Part shown: one piece after another, positions 4,705 through 56,729 of the stretch | How positions within the stretch are numbered: position 1 is the stretch's first letter | Layout of the letters: each line of letters opens with the position of its first letter | DNA from: a virus | Taxonomy: Duplodnaviria > Caudoviricetes | Direction: 5' to 3' (one strand) | Length of the DNA: 63,568 bases | IMG/VR virus record: IMGVR_UViG_3300034064_001787 | Coordinates: 1-63,568 of that record | The notes under the pieces: generated by a model | Database searches by the model: none | Seen by the model: only the letters and a program-made list of their open reading frames with translations | What the model was told of the DNA's origin: nothing | Position numbers and translations under genes: made by a program

Positions 4705-4808
4705 GCCCCGCCCACGGCGTCAACGGGAGCCAGACTGGGAGAAGAGGAGACTGGGAGAAGAGGAGTGGAGGAAATTCAGAGTCTCCGAGTCTCAAAGTCT
4801 CCCAGTCT

Positions 4809-24262: not shown

Positions 24263-24372
24263 GCCTGCAACAATCGTATTCCTCATTCCTCATTCCTCAT
24301 TCATCATTCCTCATTCCCACCGGCTGACACCCCACGCTCTCCGAGTCTCCTCTTCTCCAAGTCTCCCAGTCC

Positions 24373-24629: not shown

Positions 24630-24719
24630 AACAAAAAGGATCAGGCACAAAATGGGCGGACTTGATGCCGCCTCGTCTAGTGCCTCTCCGCCCATTTTGT
24701 TGCTCTGCATCCGCTGGTT
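24630..24719 (-). mobile_element. attC-like recombination site (array 1)
   Basis: AAC-6nt-GATCAGGCACAAAATGGGCGGA...TCCGCCCATTTTGT(T)GC(T)CTG(C)ATC-5nt-GTT; long inverted repeat with extrahelical bases. Confidence 0.8.
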
Positions 24720-24767
24720 CTCATTCCGTTCCCCTCGACTGCCGCAATAGATTCTTTGAATTGTGTA

Positions 24768-24796
24768 TTGACACAATTATCGGCCTATGCAATACT
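24768..24796 (+). promoter_or_regulatory. sigma70 promoter with overlapping operator
   Basis: TTGACA-N17-AATACT; inverted repeat AATTGTGT/ACACAATT at 24759-24778. Confidence 0.65.
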
Positions 24797-24861
24797 GCTC
24801 TCGTTCCAAAAAGGAACAACGTCCCGGCGTCTCCGGCTCAACTCAGCAAAGAATACAAGCC

Positions 24862-25479
24862 ATGAAACTCAGCATCCGCAATATCACCGCCTCAATCTCC
24901 AGCATGATTGAGGAATACGCCCAAGAATCCGACTCAATCGCCAGCGGAGTCGTTGGACCGTCCTTTTCCTGCTCTGGCCCTGGTTCAGGATGGCAGAAAA
25001 ACCATGATGTCACCGATTACGCCGAGCGGGCACTCTCAGACGATTACGGTGCCAGCAGCTACATCGACAGCGAGGATGGCCGCGAGGCCACGCTAGAAGA
25101 CGGCGAAGTGGTATGGTCTGAGGAATCTGTCGTCGAGATCGAGCTGCCGACTGTCGAGCAAGCTCTCGAAGACATGGAGACTTGGAAGATCATCAAAAGG
25201 GAGGCCGCGAACTACGGCGTCGATCAAAGCGAGATCGACGAACTGGCTGAAACAATTGAAGAGTGCCGGGAGATTATCGCTGAAATCACAACGGCCAAAA
25301 AAGCCGCTGGAGAAGACGCCTATCTCTGGCTGCATGACTCAGGAGATTGCATCCTCTGGGAGTCTGAAGAAGACAGCGAAAACGACAACGGTAGTCGCGC
25401 CATTGAGCGCTGGTCGCTAAGCAAAGCGCAGCGCGATGCACTGATCGAAACCACCAGCCTCGTCGATTGCAACGCCTAA
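24862..25479 (+). CDS. Highly acidic hypothetical protein (cassette gene)
   Basis: D/E-rich 205 aa; inside an attC-bounded cassette. Confidence 0.75.
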   Translation: MKLSIRNITASISSMIEEYAQESDSIASGVVGPSFSCSGPGSGWQKNHDVTDYAERALSDDYGASSYIDSEDGREATLEDGEVVWSEESVVEIELPTVEQALEDMETWKIIKREAANYGVDQSEIDELAETIEECREIIAEITTAKKAAGEDAYLWLHDSGDCILWESEEDSENDNGSRAIERWSLSKAQRDALIETTSLVDCNA

Positions 25480-25482
25480 CCC

Positions 25483-25923
25483 ATGACACTCCACCACTAC
25501 ACCGTCCAAACCGGCCACCTCACCCTGCAAACGCGGGGTGAGGTGGATCAAAAAGCGCTCGATCTCCTCGCGCCCATGATCAAGCCTGGCACGCACGCAC
25601 TGCCCGGAACAACGATCAAGCTCGACATACCGGCGGGCAACATGGGGCAGACCTCTGGCGTTGGCTCATTCCGCCTCCTCGCCGCCGATGGCGAGCCTGT
25701 GGCGCTCGCCATGCTGGCCTGGAGAGCCAGTGCAGAGGCAGGTGTCATCTGGGGCACATGTCTGCCGAATACACCCCTGCCAGACGCTCCGGCTGGCTAC
25801 CCATGGCTCGCCATCGTCCTCATGCCAGCCATCGCCACACTCAGCCGCGACGATACGCTCATGCTCGGAGACATCGAGAGATGTGTCGCATGGTCAATCA
25901 TCACCCAACAGCCAGCCGGATGA
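25483..25923 (+). CDS. Hypothetical protein (cassette gene)
   Basis: 146-aa ORF. Confidence 0.7.
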   Translation: MTLHHYTVQTGHLTLQTRGEVDQKALDLLAPMIKPGTHALPGTTIKLDIPAGNMGQTSGVGSFRLLAADGEPVALAMLAWRASAEAGVIWGTCLPNTPLPDAPAGYPWLAIVLMPAIATLSRDDTLMLGDIERCVAWSIITQQPAG

Positions 25924-26120
25924 AAAACGATCTCACACCCACACGCGGAGCGCCCCCCAAACGGGGCGCTACCGCCTCCGCCATCATCAACGTCCGGGTG
26001 GACGCTGATCGCAAAAACCACTACACGCGCTTCGCGAAAAAGCGCCGTGATGGAGACAAGACCCTCGCTGGCCTCGTGATCGAAACACTCGACGCGGCGA
26101 CTGGCTACCGTGAGGAATGA
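25920..26120 (+). CDS. Ribbon-helix-helix-like regulator (cassette gene)
   Basis: RGAPPK...INVRVD..RK..Y...A......LAGLVIETLD. Confidence 0.65.
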   Translation: MKNDLTPTRGAPPKRGATASAIINVRVDADRKNHYTRFAKKRRDGDKTLAGLVIETLDAATGYREE

Positions 26121-26121
26121 G

Positions 26122-26206
26122 AACGATTAAAATCAGGCGACGGCGAGCGCAAAAGATCGAAACCACGATAGACGCCCTATGAGCCGTTCCTCTCCATCCA
26201 ATTGTT
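26122..26206 (-). mobile_element. attC-like site with imperfect or hybrid arms (array 1)
   Basis: AAC at 26122 and GTT at 26204, ACGGC/GCCGT core; flanks complement the cassette ends. Confidence 0.6.
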
Positions 26207-26388
26207 CGTCTTCCGTTCCGTGGTGGGCATGGGTGTTCATTGCGCCCGCCGCCATCATACTCTCGCCAATCGGCACCTGTATCCTAACGGAATGGCTGCA
26301 TTTAGACTTTATAGGATGCTGCAAGCTCATTGCTGGACAGGTCATCGTGTTTCTCAGTTTAGCGATCTTCGCAGGAGGTGAAGATTGA
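26179..26388 (+). CDS. Small 2-TM membrane protein (cassette gene)
   Basis: Hydrophobic ORF; start codon inside the attC-like site. Confidence 0.6.
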   Translation: MSRSSPSNCSSSVPWWAWVFIAPAAIILSPIGTCILTEWLHLDFIGCCKLIAGQVIVFLSLAIFAGGED

Positions 26389-26483
26389 AGACGAACGACA
26401 AGGATCACGCGACCGATTACACCGCCCTGCGCAAAGCCGCCTTCCCGTAGCGACTCTCCCCGTCTCAAAACCTCATACTCCCC

Positions 26484-26513: not shown

Positions 26514-28346
26514 ATGAAACTCGTCCAACAACTCCAAGCCGCCGGTCAGGACCACGAATTCTACCCGACCACAAACGAAATCCTTCACGCTCTCTTCACG
26601 CACCTTTGCCGGGGTGATGAGGAAGCCGAATCTCCCCAAAAACAGCGCTTCCACGGCACCGTCATGGACATCGGCGCTGGCAATGGCAAAGTCCTCGCCG
26701 AGTTTGCCAAACGCGGCGCGGACACACTCTACGCCATCGAGAAAAGCCCGCTCCTGCAGCGGGAGCTGCCACCGCAAGTGCTCGTCATCGGCACCGACTT
26801 TGCGGAGCAGTCCCTTTTCACCAAACCGGTCGATCTCCTCTTCTGCAACCCGCCCTACTCGCAGTTCATCTGCTGGATGGTCAAGATCATCCGCACTGCC
26901 GCGGCCAAGGAACTCTACCTCGTCGTCCCCCGCCGCTGGCAGGACAATCCTGACGTCATCGCCGCGCTACGCTTCCGTGGCGTGCTCCTACCCCACGAAA
27001 AAGATCCCAAAGAACCACCGCCAAAGCCTACCCACCTCGTCACCGACCACCCTGAAAACCAAGCCTGGGATGCGCAATGGGGGCCAATCCGAAGCAGCAG
27101 CGGCCAGATCATCAGGTGCCGCTACTACACCCCTCACATTCGCGTCACCATCGTCGGCGAGTTCGACTTCGAAGATGCCGAAGACCGCAAGGCGCGCGCC
27201 AAGGTCCACCTCTTGCACATCCCGCTCGAAACCTCCGGCAAGCACCAGGAAAACGACGATGCCTTCGAACGCTTCTTCCAGGAGCAGTTCGCCGATCTCA
27301 TCGCCCGCTTCCAAGGTCAGAAGGAGAAACCCTCCGCCTATGAGCAGCCCCCGCCACCGCCGGATCGCTTCCCGCTCGTCACCGCAGAGAGCTACATCGA
27401 AGCCCTCGTCCAGTGCTACCACGCCGAGCTGGCGAACATCGAGAAGAACTACAACGCCGTGGCCACGCTCGATGCGGATCTGCTCCGCGAGTTCGAGGTC
27501 TATCCCGCGAAAATCATGGCCTGCCTCAAGCAGCGCCTCAGCGGCCTCCGCCACGACTACTGGCACGAGCTCTTTGACCGCATGGACAAGCTCACCTCCC
27601 GCCTCACCACCGCCAGCCGGGAATCCATGCTCGGCACCCTGCGCCGGCACGTCCAGGTCGATTTCACCGTCTCCAACATCCACGCCATCGTCCTCTGGGC
27701 GCTGAAGAACGTCAATCGCTACATCGACGCGCAGTTCATCGACACCTACGAAACCATGGTGGAGCACTGCAACATCCAGAACTACCACAGCAACCAGCGC
27801 ACCTGGCAGAAGGGTGACTGGCGCTACAACCACGCCCGCGGCCGCAACGAATGGGCGCACGACAACACCCACTTCAAGCTGGATTACCGCATCGTTTTGC
27901 AAGGCGTCGGCGGCATCGCCACCTACGAATACGACTTCCAAAAAGAAGCGCACAATTACCTCAAAGAGAAGTGCTACCACTTACTCCGCGATCTCCTCAC
28001 CATCGCCAACAATCTCGGCTTTTTCTGCTCGGTCAATCCCTACCAACTCGTCGGCAGATGCCACTCCTGGCAGAGCAACCAACGCGAGGAATTCTACTGG
28101 ACCCCAGAACCCGGCAAACAAGAGATTCTCTTCGACGCCCGCGCCTTCAAAAACGGCAATCTCCATCTCCGCCTCCACCCGCGCTTCATCCTGGCCCTCA
28201 ACGTCGAGCACGGCCGCCTCAAAGGCTGGCTCAAGGATCAGCACGATGCCGTCACCGAACTCGGCGACATGGAAGCCGCCCACTTCTGGAAAGCCAATCT
28301 TCACCTCCCCATGCCCACCAACCCCGCCCTGCTCCTCGCCGCATGA
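26514..28346 (+). CDS. Amino-DNA methyltransferase with DUF4942-like C-terminus
   Basis: EFYPT, DIGAGNG (motif I), NPPY (motif IV), FKNGNLH. Confidence 0.85.
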   Translation: MKLVQQLQAAGQDHEFYPTTNEILHALFTHLCRGDEEAESPQKQRFHGTVMDIGAGNGKVLAEFAKRGADTLYAIEKSPLLQRELPPQVLVIGTDFAEQSLFTKPVDLLFCNPPYSQFICWMVKIIRTAAAKELYLVVPRRWQDNPDVIAALRFRGVLLPHEKDPKEPPPKPTHLVTDHPENQAWDAQWGPIRSSSGQIIRCRYYTPHIRVTIVGEFDFEDAEDRKARAKVHLLHIPLETSGKHQENDDAFERFFQEQFADLIARFQGQKEKPSAYEQPPPPPDRFPLVTAESYIEALVQCYHAELANIEKNYNAVATLDADLLREFEVYPAKIMACLKQRLSGLRHDYWHELFDRMDKLTSRLTTASRESMLGTLRRHVQVDFTVSNIHAIVLWALKNVNRYIDAQFIDTYETMVEHCNIQNYHSNQRTWQKGDWRYNHARGRNEWAHDNTHFKLDYRIVLQGVGGIATYEYDFQKEAHNYLKEKCYHLLRDLLTIANNLGFFCSVNPYQLVGRCHSWQSNQREEFYWTPEPGKQEILFDARAFKNGNLHLRLHPRFILALNVEHGRLKGWLKDQHDAVTELGDMEAAHFWKANLHLPMPTNPALLLAA

Positions 28347-34694: not shown

Positions 34695-34966
34695 GCCCTG
34701 AACTCTCCACCGCCATCGCCTGCGCCACCGCCGTGAGAGGCCAACTCCAAAGCGACATCGCAACAACCTTCACACCCGACAAAGCAGCGTTGAGCAAAGC
34801 CATCGACCAATTCCTCACCCAAGCCTTCAGCGGCAGATTCGCAGATCGTGAAGCCCAACAAAACAGCGCAGCACCCCTCAAAAATCGCAGCGGACACAGC
34901 AGTGAGTGCCCTAAAGCCCCGCATTCACATGCTCCCGCACCGGAGCATAGCCCACGTAATTCTTGA
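34691..34966 (+). CDS. Hypothetical protein
   Basis: ATGA-coupled ORF, convergent with the integrase. Confidence 0.45.
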   Translation: MSPELSTAIACATAVRGQLQSDIATTFTPDKAALSKAIDQFLTQAFSGRFADREAQQNSAAPLKNRSGHSSECPKAPHSHAPAPEHSPRNS

Positions 34967-35996
34967 ACGTCACCTCGATCCCATCGCCCAGCCACTGCGC
35001 CACCGTCGCGATCGGGCACCCACCCATCACCAGCAAAGTCGCAAACGTATGACGCATCGAATGCCACCCCACCCACGGCAGCCCAGCCGCCACCACCAGC
35101 CGCTTCAATGGCTTCCGTGGTTCCCAGCGATACTTATGCTTTGCATGCCCCACATCAGGTCGCACCACGAACGGCCCATCAAACCGCTGGCCATGCAGGA
35201 ACTCATACAGCCGGTCATTCATCGGGATCCGACGAGCCTCCTTATCCTTCGGCACAAAAGTCGAAGTCTCCATCACACACACCTCACCACCACCCGGCCA
35301 GAAGCGCAGCCACTCCGGCCTCATCTCGATCATCTCATGCAGCCGCAGCCCCGCATGAAAGCCCAACATCAGCATCAGCCTCAAATCCTCCCGATCACAC
35401 AGATCGATCAGCCGCTCACGCTCCTCACGCGTGCAGAAACGATCCGCCCGCGTCTTCCGCACCACCGGCACCTTCACCTCATCCGCCACATTCCTCGGCA
35501 GCACCCCACGCTCCACCAACCAGGCCAGGAAAGCATGCAGCCGCAGCAGGTAAGTCTTCACCGTCGCCACCGCCTTCCCAGCCTCACGCAGCCCCTTCAG
35601 CCAACCCTCCACACGCCTTGCCGTGATCAGCGCCACCGGCGTCTCCACCCCCAGGAACACACCAAACAACTTCAAAGCCGACGCATCCGAATCCAGCGTC
35701 CATCGGCTCATCACCCGCTCACGCCGCACCTCCAAAAAACGCTCCCTCTCGAAAGCAAACGTCCCCGGCGTAAACTCCACTGGACGATCCCGATGCAGAT
35801 CCAGCGCCAGCTTCACCGCCTCATCGTAAGAGCGAGTCCCCAGCGCCACCCTCGGCGGCCGACGCCCCTCCCGTTGAGCCGGCCTAAAATACCACCAGCC
35901 CCCGATCTCCGTCAGTCCCTTGATCTTCACGCGACCCCTCAGCGCCCCTCTCGGAGCCTTTTTTTGACCACTTTGGTTGACCACTTTGGAGCGCAT
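34911..35996 (-). CDS. int: Tyrosine integrase
   Basis: GLRLHE (R), PKDK (K), HSMRHTF (HxxR), WLG and catalytic Y; adjacent to attP. Confidence 0.92.
   Translation of the reverse strand: MRSKVVNQSGQKKAPRGALRGRVKIKGLTEIGGWWYFRPAQREGRRPPRVALGTRSYDEAVKLALDLHRDRPVEFTPGTFAFERERFLEVRRERVMSRWTLDSDASALKLFGVFLGVETPVALITARRVEGWLKGLREAGKAVATVKTYLLRLHAFLAWLVERGVLPRNVADEVKVPVVRKTRADRFCTREERERLIDLCDREDLRLMLMLGFHAGLRLHEMIEMRPEWLRFWPGGGEVCVMETSTFVPKDKEARRIPMNDRLYEFLHGQRFDGPFVVRPDVGHAKHKYRWEPRKPLKRLVVAAGLPWVGWHSMRHTFATLLVMGGCPIATVAQWLGDGIEVTFKNYVGYAPVREHVNAGL
35964..35987 (+). repeat. Integrase arm-type direct repeats TTGACCACTTT x2
   Basis: The same pair recurs at 36139-36161 on the other side of the core. 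Confidence 0.7.
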
Positions 35997-36052
35997 AACG
36001 TGTGTTATATGGTCAAAAAGAGGGACTTTACAAGCCCCATCCCTGTGACCGA

Positions 36053-36101
36053 TGGTGGAGATAAGGGGATTCGAACCCCTGACCTTCTCATTGCGAATGA
36101 G
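36053..36101 (-). mobile_element. attP core, the 3' half of tRNA-Ala(CGC)
   Basis: Minus strand CTCATTCGCAATGAGAAGGTCAGGGGTTCGAATCCCCTTATCTCCACCA (anticodon arm, T arm, CCA); 5' half absent. Confidence 0.88.
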
Positions 36102-36104
36102 CAG

Positions 36105-36120
36105 CGTTCCACATGGAACA
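36105..36120. promoter_or_regulatory. parS-like site
   Basis: CGTTCCACATGGAACA compared with consensus TGTT(T/C)CACGTG(A/G)AACA. Confidence 0.5.
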
Positions 36121-36138
36121 CCTCTTAGTGTCACGAAT

Positions 36139-36161
36139 TTGACCACTTTCGTTGACCACTT
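36139..36161 (+). repeat. Integrase arm-type direct repeats TTGACCACTT x2
   Basis: Matches 35964-35987. Confidence 0.7.
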
Positions 36162-38015: not shown

Positions 38016-38351
38016 ATGACCGCCGACCAAATCAACGAACTCCGCGACGATTTCCGCCTCGACACCCTGCGCACCACCCTGGCGTGCAGCCCGGCCGACC
38101 AAATCAACGAACTCCGCGACAATTTCCGCGTCGCCTTACTCGACTGGGATATTCCCGTCTCCATCACCATTGAGGACGACTACGCCATCGTCCGCTTCAC
38201 GCTTTGGGGCACCAAAATCGAAGGCTGGTTCCACCGCTACAAAAACGAGTGGATCACAAATCCCGACTGCCCACACGCCATCACTGGCAGCACCTCCGTC
38301 TGGCAATGGATTGCCATGCACCTCCACGAACGTCTTCCCGCGCCCAAATGA
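38016..38351 (+). CDS. Hypothetical protein with duplicated N-terminus
   Basis: ADQINELRD occurs twice (27-bp direct repeat). Confidence 0.6.
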   Translation: MTADQINELRDDFRLDTLRTTLACSPADQINELRDNFRVALLDWDIPVSITIEDDYAIVRFTLWGTKIEGWFHRYKNEWITNPDCPHAITGSTSVWQWIAMHLHERLPAPK

Positions 38352-39832
38352 CCCCCACCATTCCCATCCGTGAACGCATCGACCGCGTGAAGCACGCCCT
38401 GCCACTCCTCCGCTACCTGGAGAGCACACTCAGCTTCAAGTTCCGCCCGGTCAAAAGCGGCCAGTGGCTCACCCTCTGCCCCTTTCACAGCGAGAAGACC
38501 CCCTCCTTCCACCTCTTCGAGCAGGATCACCACTACCACTGCTACGGCTGCGGCGCTCATGGCGACATCGTCGATTTCATCCAGGCCACCAAAGGCTGCA
38601 GCAAGCTCGAAGCCCTCCAAATGCTCGAGCAGGACGCCCCCGGCCTCCGCTACCTCAATGCCGCCCCACCGCCCAAACCCGAGCCCGAGGCCCCACTCCT
38701 CCCGCTCAAAGACAGCCGCCATCAGGCCTGGCTCAGCGCCTGCGAAAAACTCGCCTCCAACGACCCCGAACTGAAGCGTCTCGCCGACTGGCGCGGCTTC
38801 TCCCCAGACACCTTTCGCGGAGCCGCCCGCGCCGGTCTCATGGCCCTCTGGCGTTACTGGGACCAGCCCCGCGAAGCCTTCCTCGTCCTCGCCCCCCGTT
38901 CCTTCTTCACCGGCCTTCCCCCTGCATGCAGCCCCTCCACCTCTTCCTCATCGTCTTCATCCTCGGACTCAGCCACATCTTCGCTTACCTCCTTGGACGA
39001 CTCCGAGGACAGCGCCTCCGCCCATCTCCCCGTCTCCCCCTCTCCCTATCTCGAACTCCTCCCCCACGCCTTCCACTGCCGCCTCGCCCCAGACACCCCG
39101 GGAAATCCGCATAAAAAGCAGTCCTGGCGTTACGATCCCGCTGGCAGCAAGGCCTGGCCCTTCTTCTGGGGAAATCCCTTCGAGGCACGTTACCTCTTCA
39201 TCCTGGAAGGCCAGTGGGACGCCCTCGCCCTCGCCGATCTCTGCGGCTGGCACAGCCCCGAGAGCATGCCACCGAAGACCTGCATCATCGGCCTGCGCGG
39301 AGCCACGAGCTGGCGACTCCTCCTCCACAAAGAGCACGGCCTCCCCATCGACCCCGAGGCCACCGCTATCTGCATTGGCGATGCCGATGCCGCCGGAGCC
39401 AAATGGTATGAGCCGGACGGCTTCCTCGCCACCCTGCGGCCCCGCGTGAAGCAGCTCCTCACCTACCGCCCCACTGCCAGCGGCTGCAAAGACTTCAACG
39501 ACCTCACCAAAGGCGGCCACCTCACCGCCGCCGACTTCCTTGGTTGGGTCAAGGCCCGCCTCAAACGCCACCCCTGGCGGCAGCCCGGCCCGCCCCTCAC
39601 CTTCGGCGCGTGGTGCAAGTCCGCCGCCCTCCGGGAGGACGATCTCGGCCGCGCCGCTCGCCTCGTCGCCACCGATCCCACCCGTCCCAAAGGCCGGAAA
39701 AACCCCAAGCACTGGCGCTCCTACTGGCGCGCCCAAAAACACCTCACCGAAGCCGATCTCCTCCTCCTCTACACCCTCCTCGACACCTGGAAAACCCGCG
39801 CCGCCCCCGACACCGCCATTCTCGCTGAATAA
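38348..39832 (+). CDS. DNA primase (CHC2 zinc finger plus TOPRIM)
   Basis: CPFHSEKTPSF...HCYGCG; ILEGQWD; GDAD; KDFND. Confidence 0.88.
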   Translation: MTPTIPIRERIDRVKHALPLLRYLESTLSFKFRPVKSGQWLTLCPFHSEKTPSFHLFEQDHHYHCYGCGAHGDIVDFIQATKGCSKLEALQMLEQDAPGLRYLNAAPPPKPEPEAPLLPLKDSRHQAWLSACEKLASNDPELKRLADWRGFSPDTFRGAARAGLMALWRYWDQPREAFLVLAPRSFFTGLPPACSPSTSSSSSSSSDSATSSLTSLDDSEDSASAHLPVSPSPYLELLPHAFHCRLAPDTPGNPHKKQSWRYDPAGSKAWPFFWGNPFEARYLFILEGQWDALALADLCGWHSPESMPPKTCIIGLRGATSWRLLLHKEHGLPIDPEATAICIGDADAAGAKWYEPDGFLATLRPRVKQLLTYRPTASGCKDFNDLTKGGHLTAADFLGWVKARLKRHPWRQPGPPLTFGAWCKSAALREDDLGRAARLVATDPTRPKGRKNPKHWRSYWRAQKHLTEADLLLLYTLLDTWKTRAAPDTAILAE

Positions 39833-40134: not shown

Positions 40135-40680
40135 GTGCCGCCTCCCCCTCTCCATGAAACCGCCCCTTCTCCCACGCGGGCTCGTCCCGGCACCCAGCGT
40201 TCCCGTGGCACCTCTGCCACCGCTCCCCCGGCACTCCTCATCGTCCACATGCCGGATGGCGAGCGCCGCCTCTCCGAGACCGCCCACGATCTCGGCCTCG
40301 CCCTCGCCAGCCTCGCCACCCCGCTCCTCTACCGGCGCGGTCGCCTCCCCGTCTATCCCGACTGGATCGAGCAGGACGGCGAGCGCCGCCGCGCTCTCAT
40401 TCCCCTCGAAGCCGCCGAAGCCCGCACCTTCTTTGACGAGTCCATTCTCTTCGTGCGGATGAAATACGATCAGCGCAGCGAGACCGAGCGCCAGGAGCAC
40501 GTCACCCTGTCCAAATCCGAAGCCGAAGGCCTCCTCGTCGCCAAGCAGCTCCTCCAGCACCTCCCCGAGATCACCGCCATCCATCCACGCCCCCTTCCCA
40601 TCCTCAACCCCGATGGCACCCTCCGCCTCCTCCCTCCCGGCTACGACCCCGATACCGGCATCTACACCTACGGGGAGTGA
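40135..40680 (+). CDS. N-terminal part of a primase-associated helicase/ATPase (split gene)
   Basis: Ends in P.L..DG.L....GYDP.TGIY, a motif I recall lying just upstream of 'EFPF' in this family. Confidence 0.6.
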   Translation: MPPPPLHETAPSPTRARPGTQRSRGTSATAPPALLIVHMPDGERRLSETAHDLGLALASLATPLLYRRGRLPVYPDWIEQDGERRRALIPLEAAEARTFFDESILFVRMKYDQRSETERQEHVTLSKSEAEGLLVAKQLLQHLPEITAIHPRPLPILNPDGTLRLLPPGYDPDTGIYTYGE

Positions 40681-40748
40681 GGAGCGCCGCAACGTCCCTG
40701 CTCTGGCACAGAGCGTGGGAGAGAAAACTAAACCGAAGGAAAAGGCCA

Positions 40749-41186
40749 ATGAATAAAAACCAACTCAATGATGCCACAGCGCCCCGTTCGGCTTTTCTTG
40801 TGGCGAAAATGTCCGATGGCAGCCGATGGAAATTGCCCGTGGCGAAGCTCTTGGAAAGTATAGCAGATAGCTGGCAGAAATACTGGGAAGATGAAGGAAA
40901 ACCAGGGACACGAGAGGAAGCTCTGGAGGAAGCATGGCTGGAACGCCTGCATCCGATTGTTGTGCCTTGGGTTGGAAAGCTCAGGCATGACCGTGAAAAG
41001 TTCGCTGATTGGGGATGGATCAGAGACGAGGCAGGCGAGTTGATCTTTAAAGTGCCGATTCCACTTTGTCTTTCCGAGGAAGATTTGCAGAAATACCGCC
41101 GCGAGAAAATCGACCCGACTCAAGCGCGGGTCGATGCGCTGCTAAATGCTCTCAATGGGCACAACGGAAAGGATGACCCACGATGA
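40749..41186 (+). CDS. Fused cassette protein (cassettes 1 and 2)
   Basis: In-frame fusion across a collapsed attC; C-terminal half identical to the 41499 protein. Confidence 0.7.
   Translation: MNKNQLNDATAPRSAFLVAKMSDGSRWKLPVAKLLESIADSWQKYWEDEGKPGTREEALEEAWLERLHPIVVPWVGKLRHDREKFADWGWIRDEAGELIFKVPIPLCLSEEDLQKYRREKIDPTQARVDALLNALNGHNGKDDPR
40944..41165 (+). repeat. 222-bp duplication, copy 1 (copy 2 at 41550-41771)
   Basis: Five substitutions, all synonymous. Confidence 0.95.
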
Positions 41187-41497
41187 CCGCGAATAACGGC
41201 TCCGCTTCACCCTCGACTCCAACGCGGTCAGCGTTGGGTCAATCCGCTGGTTCGGCATTGTGCGCCGGGTGCCAGTGGATAGCCGATAAACCCGGCCAAT
41301 GGTGCGATATGCTCCGTGACGCACCGGAGGAACTGCCATGCACACAACACGACCAATTCGCTCCGATCAGGGAAACAATGGTTAAAACCGGCATGGCAAA
41401 ACTCGTCATCGCTGCGGCGGTTATCGGTATGCCGAACACCAAGGATCAGGCGACCGATGGGGCGCATAACCAGAATCAACCAACGAAGTCCAAGTGA
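41183..41497 (+). CDS. Cys-rich cassette protein
   Basis: CAGC...C...C; ATG inside the attC; ATGA-coupled. Confidence 0.65.
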   Translation: MTANNGSASPSTPTRSALGQSAGSALCAGCQWIADKPGQWCDMLRDAPEELPCTQHDQFAPIRETMVKTGMAKLVIAAAVIGMPNTKDQATDGAHNQNQPTKSK

Positions 41498-41498
41498 T

Positions 41499-41783
41499 AT
41501 GAGCGAAGGAATCCAAACTGAAAAGTCCGGCAGCAGCGCCCCATCTGGTCGCCTGCATCCGATTGTTGTGCCTTGGGTTGGAAAGCTCAGGCATGACCGT
41601 GAAAAGTTCGCTGATTGGGGATGGATCAGAGACGAGGCAGGCGAGTTGATCTTCAAAGTGCCGATTCCACTTTGTCTTTCCGAGGAAGATTTGCAGAAAT
41701 ACCGCCGCGAGAAAATAGACCCGACTCAAGCCCGTGTCGATGCGCTGCTAAATGCTCTCAATGGTCACAACCGCCGATGGTGA
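41499..41783 (+). CDS. Cassette protein (duplicate of cassette 2)
   Basis: ATG in the attC loop; stop in the next attC. Confidence 0.7.
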   Translation: MSEGIQTEKSGSSAPSGRLHPIVVPWVGKLRHDREKFADWGWIRDEAGELIFKVPIPLCLSEEDLQKYRREKIDPTQARVDALLNALNGHNRRW

Positions 41784-41870
41784 TGGACGGCGCGAACCCG
41801 CTCCGCCTACTCACTGACTTCCTCGCCGTTCCATCCACCTACTTGTTCTCTGAATCAGCCCGAAATACCT

Positions 41871-42206
41871 ATGAACTTTGACATCAATACAAACGTCCGC
41901 CTCTTCGATCTTGTGCGCTTCATGCGCTCGAAACTCTACGAAGCGGAACTCATCACCGACCGCGAATACATATGGCTCTGTGCCGAAGCCCCAATGGCTA
42001 AAGGCCAAGGAAGCCCTTCACCACGCCGACTGGAAGACTACGACGAGATCCGTGCGAAGATGAAGCGCATGGAAAGCGCACTGAAAAGCATCGCCGCTCA
42101 CGATGGCCCCGGATTCCCGCATGGGACATGTGCCAAGATCGCCGCCGAAGGCTTGGATTCAGAGAACGCCGAGGCCATCCACGGCGAGAAAGGAGTATCG
42201 AAATGA
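41871..42206 (+). CDS. Cassette protein
   Basis: 111 aa; stop inside the next attC loop. Confidence 0.7.
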   Translation: MNFDINTNVRLFDLVRFMRSKLYEAELITDREYIWLCAEAPMAKGQGSPSPRRLEDYDEIRAKMKRMESALKSIAAHDGPGFPHGTCAKIAAEGLDSENAEAIHGEKGVSK

Positions 42207-42448
42207 AGAAAGACGATGAACGCCGTTGGATGCGCCGCCTTGTTCGCTGGGGCTGGTTTGCATGTTTTCTTGGTAACTACGAGTGGTATCGACGCCTCTA
42301 CGGAGGGCTTTGGGCGCATGTCCACGTAGAGGAACCTTGCTACTCCTGCATGTGGCTCAACTGCCCTGCGGGTGCTGATGAAAGCTACCGCGAATGGAAC
42401 TGGCGTGGCACTCCCGAGTTCCGCAATTACGATTCAGCGAACAGTTAA
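42203..42448 (+). CDS. Trp-rich cassette protein
   Basis: AGGAG plus ATG inside the attC loop; ATGA-coupled. Confidence 0.65.
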   Translation: MKKDDERRWMRRLVRWGWFACFLGNYEWYRRLYGGLWAHVHVEEPCYSCMWLNCPAGADESYREWNWRGTPEFRNYDSANS

Positions 42449-42534
42449 TATCCCGAACACAATTCGGTATATCACCAGCCAAACCAGAACACTCCCCCTC
42501 TCCCAGTCTCCTCTTCTCCAAGTCTCCCCACCCC

Positions 42535-43947
42535 ATGCCCCCCAGCGCCGCCTATCTCATCGCCCTCTACAAGGAGTTCCCCTTCCAGGAAGGCCGCCTC
42601 GATGACCTCCTACGCCGGCACCGTGTCCGCATCCAGGACGGACAGGTCGTTGAGGGAGACCTCAACACCATCCCCGCCGAGCAATGGCCGCGCTCCTTCC
42701 GCGTCCATCTCGCGTTCATGGTCACCCTGGCCGCCACCGCTCTGCTGCCGAAAGGATCCAACCGCCTCGGCTTCGCCTACAACGCCAACGCGCCCCGCTC
42801 CGGGAAGACGCTCCTCGTCCAGTCCGCCATCTGCCCCATCTACGGCTGGACGAGCGGACGCTCCTGGCCCGTGAGCGGGCAGGGGAAGAACCACAGCGAT
42901 GAAGCCGAACTGCGGAAATCTCTCGATGCCATCGCCCTCGAAGGCACTCCCTACATCTTCTTCGACAACATCCGCTGCCAGGTCGAATCCCAAGCCCTCG
43001 AAAGCTACATGACCACGCCCACCTGGAGCGGGCGCTTCATGGGCAGGAACGACAAAACCTTCACTGCCGCGGCCTGCGCCACCATCGCCCTCACTGGGAA
43101 CGGCCTCAAAGCCTCCACCGACAACATGGAGCGCTTTCTCTTCTGTGACCTCTTCGTCGAGGAAGTCGAGGCCACCTCGCGCCCCATCGAAAACGTCATC
43201 GAGCAGCCCTGGATCATGGAGAACCGGGAAGAAATCTTCACCGCCGTCATGGGCCTCATCACCCACTGGGATGCCATGGGTCGCCCACCACCGCCCGCCC
43301 GCGTCCGCCGTGGCTTCGAGACCTTTGGAAACATCATCGGCGGCATCATCTCCGCCGCCGGTTTCGGGGATCTCTTTGAGCGCCGTCCCGACAACGAATC
43401 CTCCGGCAACAGCGCCGACACCGACATGCGCCGCCTAGTCCACCTCATGGTCGAAGCCATCGGCCCCCACCTCACCGATCCACGCCCCCGCCACGAGTTC
43501 ACCTTCGATCACCTCGTGCAGATCTCCTTCCAAGACGGCCTCTTCACCTACTACCTCGAAGGCAAGGAGCAGTTCGATGCCCCCACCCAGACCACCAAGC
43601 TCCACCTCACCAATCAGAGCAATGCCCGCTTTGGTGCCGCCCTGCGCTCCTACGCCCCGGAAAAGAAAGGCCGCACCTGGGAGCTGCCCCACAACAGCCG
43701 CCTACGCCTGCAAAGCAACGGCAACGGCCGCAGCAAGCGCTACATCGCCACCCTGGAGCTCACCCCACGCGGGCGGCTGCATCAGCTCCTCCACTACCAC
43801 GAGATCGGCATCGCCACCTTTGACCAATGGTTGCTTGATCAAGGCTTCCCCGTGCTCTCCGGCACCACCGAGGAGGAGCAGCAGCTCCTCCTCCAGGGCT
43901 GGCCCGCCACCTTGCAGGAACTCAAGGCCAGCATGCCCACGAGTTAG
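42535..43947 (+). CDS. P-loop helicase/ATPase, C-terminal part of the split gene
   Basis: EFPF; Walker A APRSGKT; IFFDN; TGN; D..ERF. Confidence 0.8.
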   Translation: MPPSAAYLIALYKEFPFQEGRLDDLLRRHRVRIQDGQVVEGDLNTIPAEQWPRSFRVHLAFMVTLAATALLPKGSNRLGFAYNANAPRSGKTLLVQSAICPIYGWTSGRSWPVSGQGKNHSDEAELRKSLDAIALEGTPYIFFDNIRCQVESQALESYMTTPTWSGRFMGRNDKTFTAAACATIALTGNGLKASTDNMERFLFCDLFVEEVEATSRPIENVIEQPWIMENREEIFTAVMGLITHWDAMGRPPPPARVRRGFETFGNIIGGIISAAGFGDLFERRPDNESSGNSADTDMRRLVHLMVEAIGPHLTDPRPRHEFTFDHLVQISFQDGLFTYYLEGKEQFDAPTQTTKLHLTNQSNARFGAALRSYAPEKKGRTWELPHNSRLRLQSNGNGRSKRYIATLELTPRGRLHQLLHYHEIGIATFDQWLLDQGFPVLSGTTEEEQQLLLQGWPATLQELKASMPTS

Positions 43948-54069: not shown

Positions 54070-56729
54070 GCGCGAGTCCCGATAAGGGTTACTTTGAGCC
54101 CCGCGCCCGCGATGGTGCTGCCGATCTGGTCGATGTCGATAGTCATCTCGGCATCATCTGCAAGCCCGGTGTCGGAGATGACAGCGGCGGTGGCGGCGGT
54201 AGTGCTGGTCTTTTCTGTCGCGTCGATGCTGAGCTTGGTGCTCAAAATCGTGCTTCCGCTCTCATTGATGTCCACCACCAACGTGCTACCTGTTGGAGCT
54301 GTATTGACGGAGGCGCGAACGGCTGCCAGCGTCATGGCAAAAGGCATTCGGAAAGTGACTTTTGCGGTGCCCGCCGTGAGGGCTGTGGACTCGTCTGAGA
54401 GAGCCACGCTGTATTCTGCTGGCAGGCCCACAAACGATCCGCCTGCGCGATAGAGCAGATTGCCCTCCACCGTGAGATTGCCAGCCGAGCTGCGTGCTAG
54501 GGTCGTGTCGCTCGCGTGACCGACTTCAAGGCTGCCGACACCTAAAGGAGCGGAAGTGCTGCCGGTGATGCCCGCGAGCGGCAGTCCGGTGGCGTTGGTG
54601 AGGGTGGCTGCGCTTGGGGTGCCGAGGTTCGGCGTGACGAGGGTGGGCGAGTTGCCAAAGACGAGCGCTCCACTGCCGGTTTCGTCGGAGATCACTCCCG
54701 CGAGTTGCGCGGAGGTCGTGGCGGCAAATTGAGAGAGCGGATTGCTGGTGAGCGCATTTCCACCGCCGCTCAGTGTCTGCATCGTTGGGGCCGCGCCCGC
54801 GCCGTTGCTCGTCAGCACTTGACCGGCGGTGCCGGTGGCGACGACGGCAGGGTTGCCGCTGGCGTCGTAGGTGATGAGGTTGCCTGCGGTGCCTGCGGCC
54901 ATCTTGGCAAGAGTCACTGCATCATCCACGAGGCCAGCCGTGGGCAGTCCGGTGGCGTTGGTGAGGGTGAGGCTGCTCGGCGTGCCGCCTGCGCCGTTGA
55001 ATAGAACGGGAGCCCCAGCGGAGCCGATGGCAACCGCGAGCGCATCGTAAACACCAGTGCCGAGCGCTCCACTGACGAGCAGTGTGCCGCTGAAATCTGG
55101 CAGCAGCCATTCGCGGTTGGCGGTAAGTGTGGGCGATCGTAAAAACGAATCAAGAGTCGCAGTGCCGAATTTCAGAAAATCGCTGGCAAGCAACGCATAG
55201 GGGTAAGTGCCAGTGGCAGCCCAAACGACGAGAGCATTAGAGATGGTCGCGCCACCGCTGGCGTCAAAGACGATGGCCTTACCCGCGTCTGCGCTGCCGT
55301 TGGCCCCCTCACTTGAGGCGAGAAGTGCGGCGCTGCCTAAACTCAACAGCGTGCGAATGGCGGCGTAGTCTGCGGCGGAGAGCAGGCTTTGCACATTGCT
55401 GCTTGGCGCGATGCCCGCGAACGTGGTGAGGTTGGCGTTGTAGGCCTGGACGTTGGTGCCGATGACGAGACCCAGTAGGGTGCGCATGGCCGCATAGTCC
55501 GCCGCATTCAGCAGGCTCTGCACGTTGGCCGCGGGTGCAATACCCGCAAACGTGGCGAGGTTGGCGCTGTAGGCCTGGACGTTGGTGCCGATGACGAGAC
55601 CCAGTAGGGTGCGCATGGCCGCATAGTCCGCCGCATTCAGCAGGCTCTGCACGTTGGCCGCTGGCGCGATGCCCGCGAACGTGGTGAGGTTGGCGCTGTA
55701 GGCCTGGACGTTGGTGCCGATGATCAGTCCGAGTAGGGTGCGAATGGCGGCATAGTCCGCCGCATTCAGCAGGCTCTGCACGTTGGCCGCTGGAGCGATG
55801 CCCGCGAACGTGGCGAGGTTGGCGCTGTAGGCCTGGACGTTGGTGCCGATGACGAGTCCGAGAGAAGCGGCGGTTTGATCTCCTGTGTTGGTGCCACTCA
55901 GATTCGCCACCGCCTCATTAGCGAGCATCGCGTTGGTGATCGCCCCGTTGGCGATGCTGGTGGCATTGCCGATGCTGGTGACAGGGCCGGTGAGGTTGGC
56001 ATTGGTGGTGACCGTCGCCGCATTGCCGGTGATGTTGACCTGGTCACCCGTGTTGGTGCCGCTCAGTGTGCCGGTGGCCCCATCGGCGATGGTGATGCCG
56101 CTGGCTTGCACCACCTTACCACTGGTGCCGTTGTAGCGCACGATGGCGTTGTCTGCGGCACTCGCAGGGCCAACGACATCGCCGCTGCCAGAACCACCCG
56201 CGACGGCCAATTCTTCGGCTTCATCGTCGTGCGTGAAACCATTGGCTTCAGGAGCGCGGAGTTTCAGCCATTCCCACGGCGTCAGCATCACCAGCGGATC
56301 ACCGCCGCCAGCGCCGGTGCGGCGTTGCAGGGAGAAGATCAGGTCATCGCTCTCTTCTGGCGCGTCCGCGCCTGGAATGGTCCATTCCAGCGCCGCCAGC
56401 ACTTGAAACAGCTCCTTCGTCGGGCTGGCCGCCAGCAGCGCCAGGATGGCATCTGTGTTCAGGCTCAAACGCCCACTGTAAAAGCCTGTGGCGGCGTTTT
56501 CTGGCACCTCAAACTCCGTCAACTCCGCCAGTAGTCCCGCGCTCTTGGTGGCGCGCACGCGCAGCGCCAGCGTGCTGCCGCTTTCCAGCAGCACCGCCTC
56601 GCCGTCCTGATGGAAGCGCACCTCCACCCGCTCTCCCGTCAGCGCCTTGACTTCTTGAGTCACCGGACCACTGCGGGCAGGCCATTCCGCACTGACCACA
56701 CCATTGAGGAGATTCGCATACAACCGCAT
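54066..56729 (-). CDS. Tail fibre protein
   Basis: G/T/A-rich; GDVVGPASA.DNAIVR, SGTNTGDQ, DETGSGALVF motifs; TTGAT-N14-ATG. Confidence 0.85.
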   Translation of the reverse strand: MRLYANLLNGVVSAEWPARSGPVTQEVKALTGERVEVRFHQDGEAVLLESGSTLALRVRATKSAGLLAELTEFEVPENAATGFYSGRLSLNTDAILALLAASPTKELFQVLAALEWTIPGADAPEESDDLIFSLQRRTGAGGGDPLVMLTPWEWLKLRAPEANGFTHDDEAEELAVAGGSGSGDVVGPASAADNAIVRYNGTSGKVVQASGITIADGATGTLSGTNTGDQVNITGNAATVTTNANLTGPVTSIGNATSIANGAITNAMLANEAVANLSGTNTGDQTAASLGLVIGTNVQAYSANLATFAGIAPAANVQSLLNAADYAAIRTLLGLIIGTNVQAYSANLTTFAGIAPAANVQSLLNAADYAAMRTLLGLVIGTNVQAYSANLATFAGIAPAANVQSLLNAADYAAMRTLLGLVIGTNVQAYNANLTTFAGIAPSSNVQSLLSAADYAAIRTLLSLGSAALLASSEGANGSADAGKAIVFDASGGATISNALVVWAATGTYPYALLASDFLKFGTATLDSFLRSPTLTANREWLLPDFSGTLLVSGALGTGVYDALAVAIGSAGAPVLFNGAGGTPSSLTLTNATGLPTAGLVDDAVTLAKMAAGTAGNLITYDASGNPAVVATGTAGQVLTSNGAGAAPTMQTLSGGGNALTSNPLSQFAATTSAQLAGVISDETGSGALVFGNSPTLVTPNLGTPSAATLTNATGLPLAGITGSTSAPLGVGSLEVGHASDTTLARSSAGNLTVEGNLLYRAGGSFVGLPAEYSVALSDESTALTAGTAKVTFRMPFAMTLAAVRASVNTAPTGSTLVVDINESGSTILSTKLSIDATEKTSTTAATAAVISDTGLADDAEMTIDIDQIGSTIAGAGLKVTLIGTRA
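55347..55862 (-). repeat. Four 129-bp (43-aa) tandem repeats in the tail fibre
   Basis: GGTGCCGAT anchor at 55455, 55584, 55713 and 55842. Confidence 0.9.

Follow-up and report, generated by a model that had tools for sequence, protein, structure and literature searches.

Is a run of small genes and hairpins in the genome of a tailed phage an integron cassette array, and if so, on which strand of its recombination sites do the genes lie? The question is raised by positions 40691-42479 of the IMG/VR virus record IMGVR_UViG_3300034064_001787, which we analyzed over its whole length of 63,568 bp (hereafter, the window); the record carries direct terminal repeats and is a complete 63.6-kb tailed phage. 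An earlier reading of the letters alone (the sequence-only reading) had noted that small open reading frames (ORFs) alternate here with hairpins bounded by AAC and GTT triplets, and had proposed an integron-type array in which each attC recombination site stands in front of its gene. Our results support the identification of the four intact island hairpins as integron attC sites, based on their structure, on covariance models, and on relatives linked to the integron integrase IntI, and likewise support the placement of the genes on the attC bottom strand with the site 5′ of the gene, a reversal relative to bacterial integrons. Taken as a whole, 40691-42479 is very probably an integrase-less cassette array (a cluster of attC sites lacking an integron integrase, or CALIN) with an attI-like end, built or exchanged by IntI-type recombination, and with its genes on the bottom strand.

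When folded as single-stranded DNA, the + strand segments at 41163-41252, 41435-41567, 41769-41847, and 42165-42244 adopt one common shape: AAC, 5-7 unpaired nt, a stem, 4-5 unpaired nt, and GTT. In 4/4 cases the 5′ arm is free of extra bases and the 3′ arm bears two single ones. The fold of 41435-41567 (-27.5 kcal/mol, z -4.35) is equaled by 0/200 shuffled sequences, that of 41163-41252 (-19.5 kcal/mol, z -2.56) by 4/200, that of 41769-41847 (z -1.79) by 10/200, and that of 42165-42244 (z -1.60) by 15/200. The shorter sites are modest one by one (z -1.6 to -2.6); the joint pattern is not. Scanning both strands of the window for this geometry (a stem of 13 bp or more with no more than 3 bulges, preceded by AAC and 4-8 nt and followed by 3-6 nt and GTT) returned six places on the + strand, namely the four island sites, a site at 24630-24719 (23 bp, with 3 extra bases, all on the 3′ arm), and a weak match at 56172-56263 with bulges on both arms; the four - strand matches were the same loci read from the opposite strand. 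The site at 24630-24719 belongs to a second array (array A, 24630-26420), and we refer to the island itself as array B.

The cassette bodies between the sites should have complementary ends, and a search of the whole window for GTT...AAC pairs lying 150-600 nt apart with perfect complementarity of at least 8 bp found seven, four of them in the 1.75-kb island (40959->41165, 8 bp; 41250->41437, 9 bp; 41845->42167, 12 bp; 42242->42442, 8 bp), one in array A, and two elsewhere. The pair 41565->41771, with one mismatch and 6 bp of perfect complementarity, falls outside this count, and the first GTT occupies 40959-40961, correcting an earlier placement at 40958. Both structural claims of the sequence-only reading, the AAC...GTT hairpin with unpaired right-arm bases and the complementary body ends, are therefore borne out, at four sites and at four junctions (8-12 bp), respectively. 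The segment that it called degenerate, 40691-40788, indeed shows no site-like fold (z -0.64; 50/200 shuffles equal it), but is better described as a truncated attC site: two other loci (L033 5396-5517 and L036 2484-2605) hold intact 122-nt sites whose left 90-100 nt match window 40690/40697-40786 at 84-85% identity.

Relatives were sought using a pattern of two motifs common to the window sites at 24630 and 41435. This pattern led to seven other viral records, in 7/7 of which AAC lies five nt upstream even though the pattern did not demand it, and most of these loci carry arrays under the same rules. One of the seven, G001, codes for an IntI (TIGR02249, 338.9 bits; cut-off 265) that is 41% identical to IntI1 across 96% of its length and whose gene lies 785 nt downstream of a pattern-type site. 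The pattern also finds arrays on bacterial genome contigs, including IntI-coding metagenome-assembled genomes (MAGs) of Haloferula and Verrucomicrobiaceae; two of the seven genome contigs with the site pattern are verrucomicrobial, and the others come from other phyla.

The attC covariance models applied here were built in this analysis and are distinct from that of IntegronFinder: R1 comprises 12 short sites on MAG contigs, eight of which come from two arrays adjoining IntI genes in the Haloferula MAG, and R2 comprises 36 non-window sites. No model was derived from the window itself, where MAFFT alignment of the sites misplaced the left arms because their loop lengths differ. Run with default filters on the whole window, R1 matched only 41769-41847 (27.3 bits, E 3.4e-6) and 24630-24719 (25.6 bits, E 1.3e-5). 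R2 matched 41435-41567 (40.8 bits, E 3e-11), 42165-42244 (40.4 bits, E 4.2e-11), and 41163-41252 (29.4 bits, E 2.7e-7), as well as 24630-24719 (48.9 bits) and 26122-26206 (19.0 bits, E 0.0011) in array A, in each case over the full model length and on the + strand. Searched on both strands, as the sequence-only reading had proposed, the two models between them match all four intact island sites, on the + strand alone and with exactly the boundaries originally drawn; together with the folds and the IntI-linked relatives, these matches support the attC assignment. Site 1 (40691-40788) is matched by neither model. Compensatory changes occur at 13/17 pairs of the attC family alignment, values equaled in 0/500 shuffles, in an alignment that was fitted to the model and hence favors the structure. 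Rfam yielded no matches at gathering thresholds in the whole window, and over the island, at E up to 10, unrelated families at chance level only, with no attC family among the matches.

The bottom strand of an attC site carries AAC in R′ and extrahelical bases near L″ (PMC5027507). Our canonical comparison set consisted of the class 1 integron on pABWA45_2 (L011) and the chromosomal integrons of the Haloferula MAG (L028, L031). In the class 1 control, which has intI1 on the + strand, the + strand of both attC sites shows 0 extra bases in the 5′ arm and 2-3 in the 3′ arm (spacers of 6 and 5 nt), and the cassette genes lie on the - strand; the Haloferula integrons are canonical in the same sense. 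Canonically, a top-strand gene precedes its attC and is read from the promoter Pc, as in both controls; the genes of array B lie on the bottom strand instead. This assignment of the coding strand is reflected in the substitutions between homologous cassettes. Synonymous/non-synonymous counts in the + ORF frames are 5/0, 8/3, 54/25, 7/5, 16/7, and 22/13, all other frames being worse, and those in open - strand frames are 0/5, 0/11, 6/73, and 2/33. For example, the five differences in the ORF1 frame of a 222-nt repeat are all synonymous; ORF3 differs from its L034 homologue by 22 synonymous and 13 non-synonymous changes and no stops (best other frame, 12 and 20), and ORF4 from that of L033 by 16 and 7, again with no stops. 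The longest open frame of 15 viral cassette bodies lies on the bottom strand in 9, is tied in 6, and lies on the top strand in 0, and the corresponding tally for 26 bodies on genome contigs is 23 top and 3 bottom (21/21 top in the Haloferula arrays). The class 1 control, the substitution counts, and the open-frame tallies agree with the original suggestion that the coding strand is the recombinogenic bottom strand and that each site stands 5′ of its gene.

The downstream end of array B connects it with integron integrases of phages. Over the 24 nt from the last AAC, 17-19/24 positions match an AAC-anchored sequence found in L039-L043 at 54-61 nt upstream of the intI ATG, and 0/1345 other AAC-anchored 24-mers of the window reach 17 matches. 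A search for phage IntI returned 25 viral loci, 17 of them at 67-100% identity (L037-L053, IMG/VR); these phage IntI records comprise G001 and 16 further viral records with 67-81% identical IntI. The clade is ~41% identical to IntI1 and has a conserved attI-like sequence 54-65 nt before the ATG. In its records, 42/42 attC model matches lie upstream of intI on its strand, and so the polarity of attC relative to intI is canonical in phages; the cassette genes share the strand of intI and point towards it. Array B itself has four sites within 1.1 kb on one strand and no intI in the window, and because the window encodes no IntI we classify it as a CALIN with an attI-like remnant. The sequence-only reading had invoked a recombinase acting in trans, which fits the lack of IntI in the window, but its supplier need not be the host, as related phages encode IntI. 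Host-type IntIs with the same site type also exist (Haloferula and Verrucomicrobiaceae MAGs). The attI-like end, to judge by its sequence, would point to an enzyme of the phage clade.

If the + strand is the attC bottom strand and is cut in AAC between the second A and the C, the predicted cassettes are 41165-41436, 41437-41770, 41771-42166, and 42167-42441. Window 41772-42167, the predicted cassette of ORF4, is 92.9% identical to L032 1802-2198, and L034 and L035 both contain window 41433-41771 as a unit, at 87.1% identity; the flanks are unrelated in both cases. In L032, L034, and L035 these cassettes directly adjoin attI-like sequence and in the window the same cassettes are internal, as predicted by the insertion of newer cassettes at attI. 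Another recurring unit is shared between L003 (5622-5822) and L010 (295-495), related phages that are 87% identical downstream of the array. In this pair, one cassette end is common up to AAC, where the two diverge, and L010 has intI where L003 has more cassettes. A site with its cassette is also 81% identical between L019 133-684, on a 1.5-kb contig binned in a Proteobacteria MAG, and L009 769-1320, in a 61-kb viral record with direct terminal repeats; the L019 contig is probably viral and not part of the Proteobacteria MAG.

Table 1. Features of array B (40691-42479) and array A (24630-26420), in window coordinates.
Feature	Position	Strand	Remarks
Array B
Truncated attC site 1	40691..40788	+	Left arm and loop, right arm missing; holds the ORF1 start
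ORF1, 145 aa	40749..41186	+	Unique N-terminal part fused to a repeated C-terminal domain
attC site 2	41163..41252	+	Bottom-strand orientation; 20 bp, 2 extra bases on the 3′ arm
ORF2, 104 aa	41183..41497	+	Start overlaps the ORF1 stop (ATGA) within the site 2 left arm; stop in the site 3 loop
attC site 3	41435..41567	+	133 nt; 23-24 paired bases around a 71-nt loop
ORF3, 94 aa	41499..41783	+	Start in the site 3 loop
attC site 4	41769..41847	+	Fold; R1 match
ORF4, 111 aa	41871..42206	+	Open reading frame
attC site 5	42165..42244	+	Shine-Dalgarno-like AAGGAG and ORF5 ATG in the loop
ORF5, 81 aa	42203..42448	+	Stop in attI-like sequence
Last crossover triplet AAC and attI-like remnant	42440..42479	+	Match to phage pre-intI sequence
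Array A
attC site	24630..24719	+	Intact; 23 bp, 3 extra bases on the 3′ arm; R1 and R2 matches
Cassette body	24720..26124	+	Promoter-like leader and ORFs 24862-25479, 25483-25923, and 25920-26120
Degenerate attC site	26122..26206	+	R2 match
Second cassette body	26204..26420	+	ORF 26179-26388, then a left half-site from 26394

The five + strand ORFs tile the island, with neighboring stops and starts that overlap or abut. As had been claimed, the start codons at 40749, 41183, 41499, and 42203 lie inside sites and the stops are supplied by the following site, falling 6-60 nt beyond the next AAC in the ORF list; the C-terminal tails of the proteins consequently depend on the neighboring cassette. 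By a crude measure applied to 50 viral sites, the first ATG of the next-body frame lies inside the site in 23 cases, after it in 18, and upstream of it in 7, with no ORF in the remaining 2. None of the five island ORFs has a Pfam or PHROG match, and Protein Atlas gave no usable lead on the cassette proteins. The 222-nt repeat mentioned above (40944-41165 versus 41550-41771, 98% identical) makes the last 74 codons of ORF1 repeat those of ORF3; its start falls within what remains of a right arm of the site 3 type, its end lies precisely at AAC, and ORF1 is, on this comparison, a fusion.

Array A is organized along similar lines. Its intact site has 91-96% identical counterparts in L003, L008, and L010. 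In the 1.49-kb first cassette, GTTCTCATTCC at 24717 is complementary to GGAATGAGAAC at 26114-26124, and the second body has 10-bp complementary ends (26204->26396). The site and leader are 88% identical to L003, where the following ORF differs, and the last of the three ORFs of the first cassette (25920-26120) shares 93% identity with L010 289-489, the two differing by 8 synonymous and 3 non-synonymous changes; the protein of ORF 26179-26388 is 69 aa long and membrane-like. The leader contains TTGACA-17-AATACT at 24768-24796, the one promoter-like site of array A, a count no higher than chance. Neither the array A ORFs nor four cassette ORFs of L003 and L010 gave anything above Pfam cut-offs. 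Two neighboring features may be recorded here: a short tandem run of a CTCATTC-like heptamer at 24280-24318, 5′ of ORF 24373, which is similar to the sequence that opens the array A cassette (GTTCTCATTCC), and a 610-aa gene directly after the array (26514-28343) with weak methyltransferase and DUF4942 matches.

In the mechanism that we propose, each cassette would consist of an attC site followed by its gene, and cassettes would be assembled and exchanged among phages via IntI-type recombination of folded single strands, with IntI supplied in trans either by a related phage of the phage IntI clade or by a host integron. The array genes run co-directionally with the early and replication genes of the phage, and with intI in those phages that have one. 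Because the + strand of the island contains no promoter-like site, expression would most likely occur by read-through from upstream phage promoters, presumably in the primase operon. Translation would often begin inside an attC loop and end in the next site. The structure of the sites, their membership in the attC family, the homology of cassettes as units, the strand of the genes, and the lack of IntI are direct results, whereas the identity of the acting recombinase, any present mobility of the array, the mode of expression of its genes, the roles of the five orphan proteins, and translational coupling of the ORFs are matters of inference. A bolder version, which we put forward tentatively and consider doubtful, is that a clade of tailed phages runs an integron of its own in flipped form. 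Under this version, attC would lie upstream of the gene, promoters would transcribe the array towards attI and intI, and translation would start in attC loops; phages with and without intI would use a common pool of orphan cassettes, possibly in counter-defence, and phage transcription or replication may drive the shuffling. With transcription running towards attI and intI, the recombinogenic bottom strand would then be the non-template strand.

Several observations weigh against the interpretation of array B as an attC array shaped by IntI and bearing reversed genes. Neither covariance model recovers every site: with default filters R1 fails to detect sites 2, 3, and 5, and site 4 escapes R2. 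With filters off, R1 finds nothing significant in the window (best island match 11.3 bits, E 0.9), a miss that, for sites of 79-90 nt, probably reflects the hit-length limit of the unfiltered search. R2 is only partly independent, as its training set contains close homologues of 24630-24719 and was in part collected with the window motif. A crude and noisy tally in the IntI-bearing viral records assigns 17 of 31 bodies to the bottom strand and 11 to the top strand, with 3 ties. Short segments immediately preceding intI account for many of the top-strand assignments, and at a margin of at least 0.2 the count is 10 bottom and 0 top. The expectation that homology with relatives would break at AAC holds in L032, L034, L035, and the L003/L010 pair, but not throughout: in L033 the ORF4 body is homologous from GTT on and is preceded by another hairpin, and in L036 the homology takes in half of site 3 and is lost 10 nt beyond GTT. 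Such GTT-side breakpoints are not predicted by one-sided IntI cutting alone; a contribution from top-strand events, or from homologous recombination between sites that resemble each other, is probable. The window, as the sequence-only reading had it, encodes no IntI (best TIGR02249 score 18 bits against the cut-off of 265, from the ordinary phage integrase), and the truncated site 1, together with the degenerate site and half-site of array A, indicates that the arrays are decaying in places.

These signs of loss, along with the fusion of ORF1 across a lost site and the reading frames that run through sites, are also what would be seen if array B were an inert relic, descended from a phage integron whose intI was lost and now incapable of recombination, with hairpins kept only through their overlap with coding or translation-initiation sequence. 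We regard this as a possible but unlikely account: four sites are still fully paired, each with its two extra bases; other phages carry the same cassettes, 87-93% identical and at other array positions, so that exchange is not ancient; and IntI is encoded by related phages and candidate hosts. Shuffling of the modules by homologous recombination between conserved hairpins, with no integron integrase involved, would fit both the near-identical hairpins (91-96%) that flank unrelated bodies and the breakpoints at or 10 nt beyond GTT in L033 and L036, and can be likened to the promoter/stem-loop cassettes that T4-type phages have. It is nevertheless very improbable as the whole explanation, given that the complementary body ends are predicted instead by a circular cassette intermediate with its own R box, that other breakpoints fall exactly at AAC, and that the same site family adjoins IntI genes and ends in conserved attI-like sequence.

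The start codons and the Shine-Dalgarno-like sequence in loops or arms, and the 23/50 viral sites with the first ATG inside, could further suggest that the hairpins are RNA elements for translational coupling or mRNA stability that resemble attC by coincidence. Coincidence on this scale is scarcely credible, because it would account neither for the AAC/GTT triplets and the constant strand of the extra bases nor for the complementarity of body ends, the matches of models trained on IntI-linked arrays, and the homology of cassettes as units; an RNA role could exist alongside the DNA role. Canonical polarity, in turn, could be saved if the real genes were on the - strand and the + ORFs were spurious, and there are open - frames of 65-142 aa across the island, and 6/15 viral bodies are open on both strands. 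However, the open - frames take almost only non-synonymous changes and the + ORF frames do not, and the + ORFs tile the island with overlapping stops and starts, which leaves this alternative next to no likelihood. A chance pattern, - strand genes, and RNA-only hairpins were all rejected as readings of the array.

The integrase-less array that we favor sits within an otherwise recognizable phage genome. The window encodes a portal protein, large terminase, major head protein, and tail-fibre-like protein, as well as a sliding clamp, a DnaG-type primase, and a tyrosine integrase. The island is flanked on the left by the primase gene (38204-39832) and its downstream ORF (40135-40680) and on the right by a helicase-like gene (42535-43947); its GC content is 51-58% versus 60-69% in the flanks, and the strong C-over-G skew of the surroundings is absent from it. 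A tRNA-Ala gene (anticodon CGC) at 36053-36125 on the - strand overlaps the upstream end of the longest integrase ORF (34911-36146, also -). This locus is likely an integration module or attP, and suggests that the phage is temperate, with a tRNA gene as its target. A search for viral relatives via the helicase-like flank found none, with one distant match (29% identity) among five records, and the major head protein had only distant matches (25-35% identity), in 5/151 genomes of the family of the Haloferula MAG. A 24-nt exact repeat occurs at 24344-24367 and 42505-42528 (+), just 5′ of the starts of ORF 24373 and of the helicase-like gene (42535), and a third copy with 3 mismatches at 4729-4752 (-), where by chance no such copies would be expected; the repeat may be a common 5′ leader or regulatory element.

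How does this organization compare with known integrons? In the work of Cury et al. (2016, PMC4889954), a CALIN is defined by a minimum of two attC sites that share a strand, are separated by less than 4 kb, and have no neighboring intI. Array B resembles the CALINs described there in having its sites clustered on one strand, no intI nearby, and cassettes without assigned function, and differs from them in lying in a phage genome, in keeping an attI-like end, and in having all of its genes on the bottom strand. Arrays of attC sites in phages are themselves on record: Qi et al. (2023, PMC9892861) screened 10,705 NCBI phage genomes and reported them in temperate and virulent phages, with 5/6 phage attC sites recombining in assays of IntI1 with attI1, and described complete integrons as host or class 1 fragments, not as a phage-specific IntI clade. 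The phage-borne cassette array put forward by the sequence-only reading is thus real, but phage CALINs as such were already published there, and only the reversed polarity is new; the main text of the article mentions neither Verrucomicrobia-type sites nor attC-reversed genes. More broadly, the main texts of the literature searched contain no report of systematic gene reversal, of a clade of phage IntI whose arrays lie upstream and run in the same direction, or of attC loops that hold start codons.

The sites of the phage arrays follow the canonical plan (AAC, 5-6 nt, 3-4 bp, an extra base, 5-9 bp, an extra base, and the stem), with the same polarity relative to intI and attI and the same complementarity of cassette ends as the comparison set. 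The genes set the two apart: canonical integrons have top-strand genes that precede attC and diverge from intI, whereas the phage arrays have bottom-strand genes that follow attC and run towards intI. Co-directional intI and cassette genes are shared with the inverted integron-integrase group, found in Treponema and others, as it is presented by Cury et al. (2016, PMC4889954) and Ghaly et al. (2022, PMC9668308). In that group, however, intI has the orientation of attC, while in the phage records intI stands opposite the attC top strand and it is the genes that are flipped. Chromosomal integrons also contain some reverse-oriented cassettes with promoters of their own, such as toxin-antitoxin cassettes, as a minority within canonical arrays. 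As in the phage arrays, the gene of such a cassette faces attI and is expressed independently of Pc; in the phages, by contrast, reversal is the rule across the arrays of many records. To the rule that cassettes are promoterless, Nivina (2016, PMC5027507) mentions only "few exceptions".

Several consequences follow from this comparison. Phages would gain a dedicated route for swapping small accessory genes, and the finding connects the cassette pools of phages and bacteria. Tools that assume a gene upstream of its attC site would mispair genes and sites in these arrays. The sites, the attI-like sequence, and the phage IntI are now defined and ready for standard recombination assays. Strand selection at attC is held to make cassettes enter facing away from intI, so that they are read from Pc (PMC5027507). 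A family in which every gene is reversed, and the sites keep their usual polarity with respect to intI and attI, implies that the integron platform works in a second configuration, one that suits genomes transcribed in one direction.

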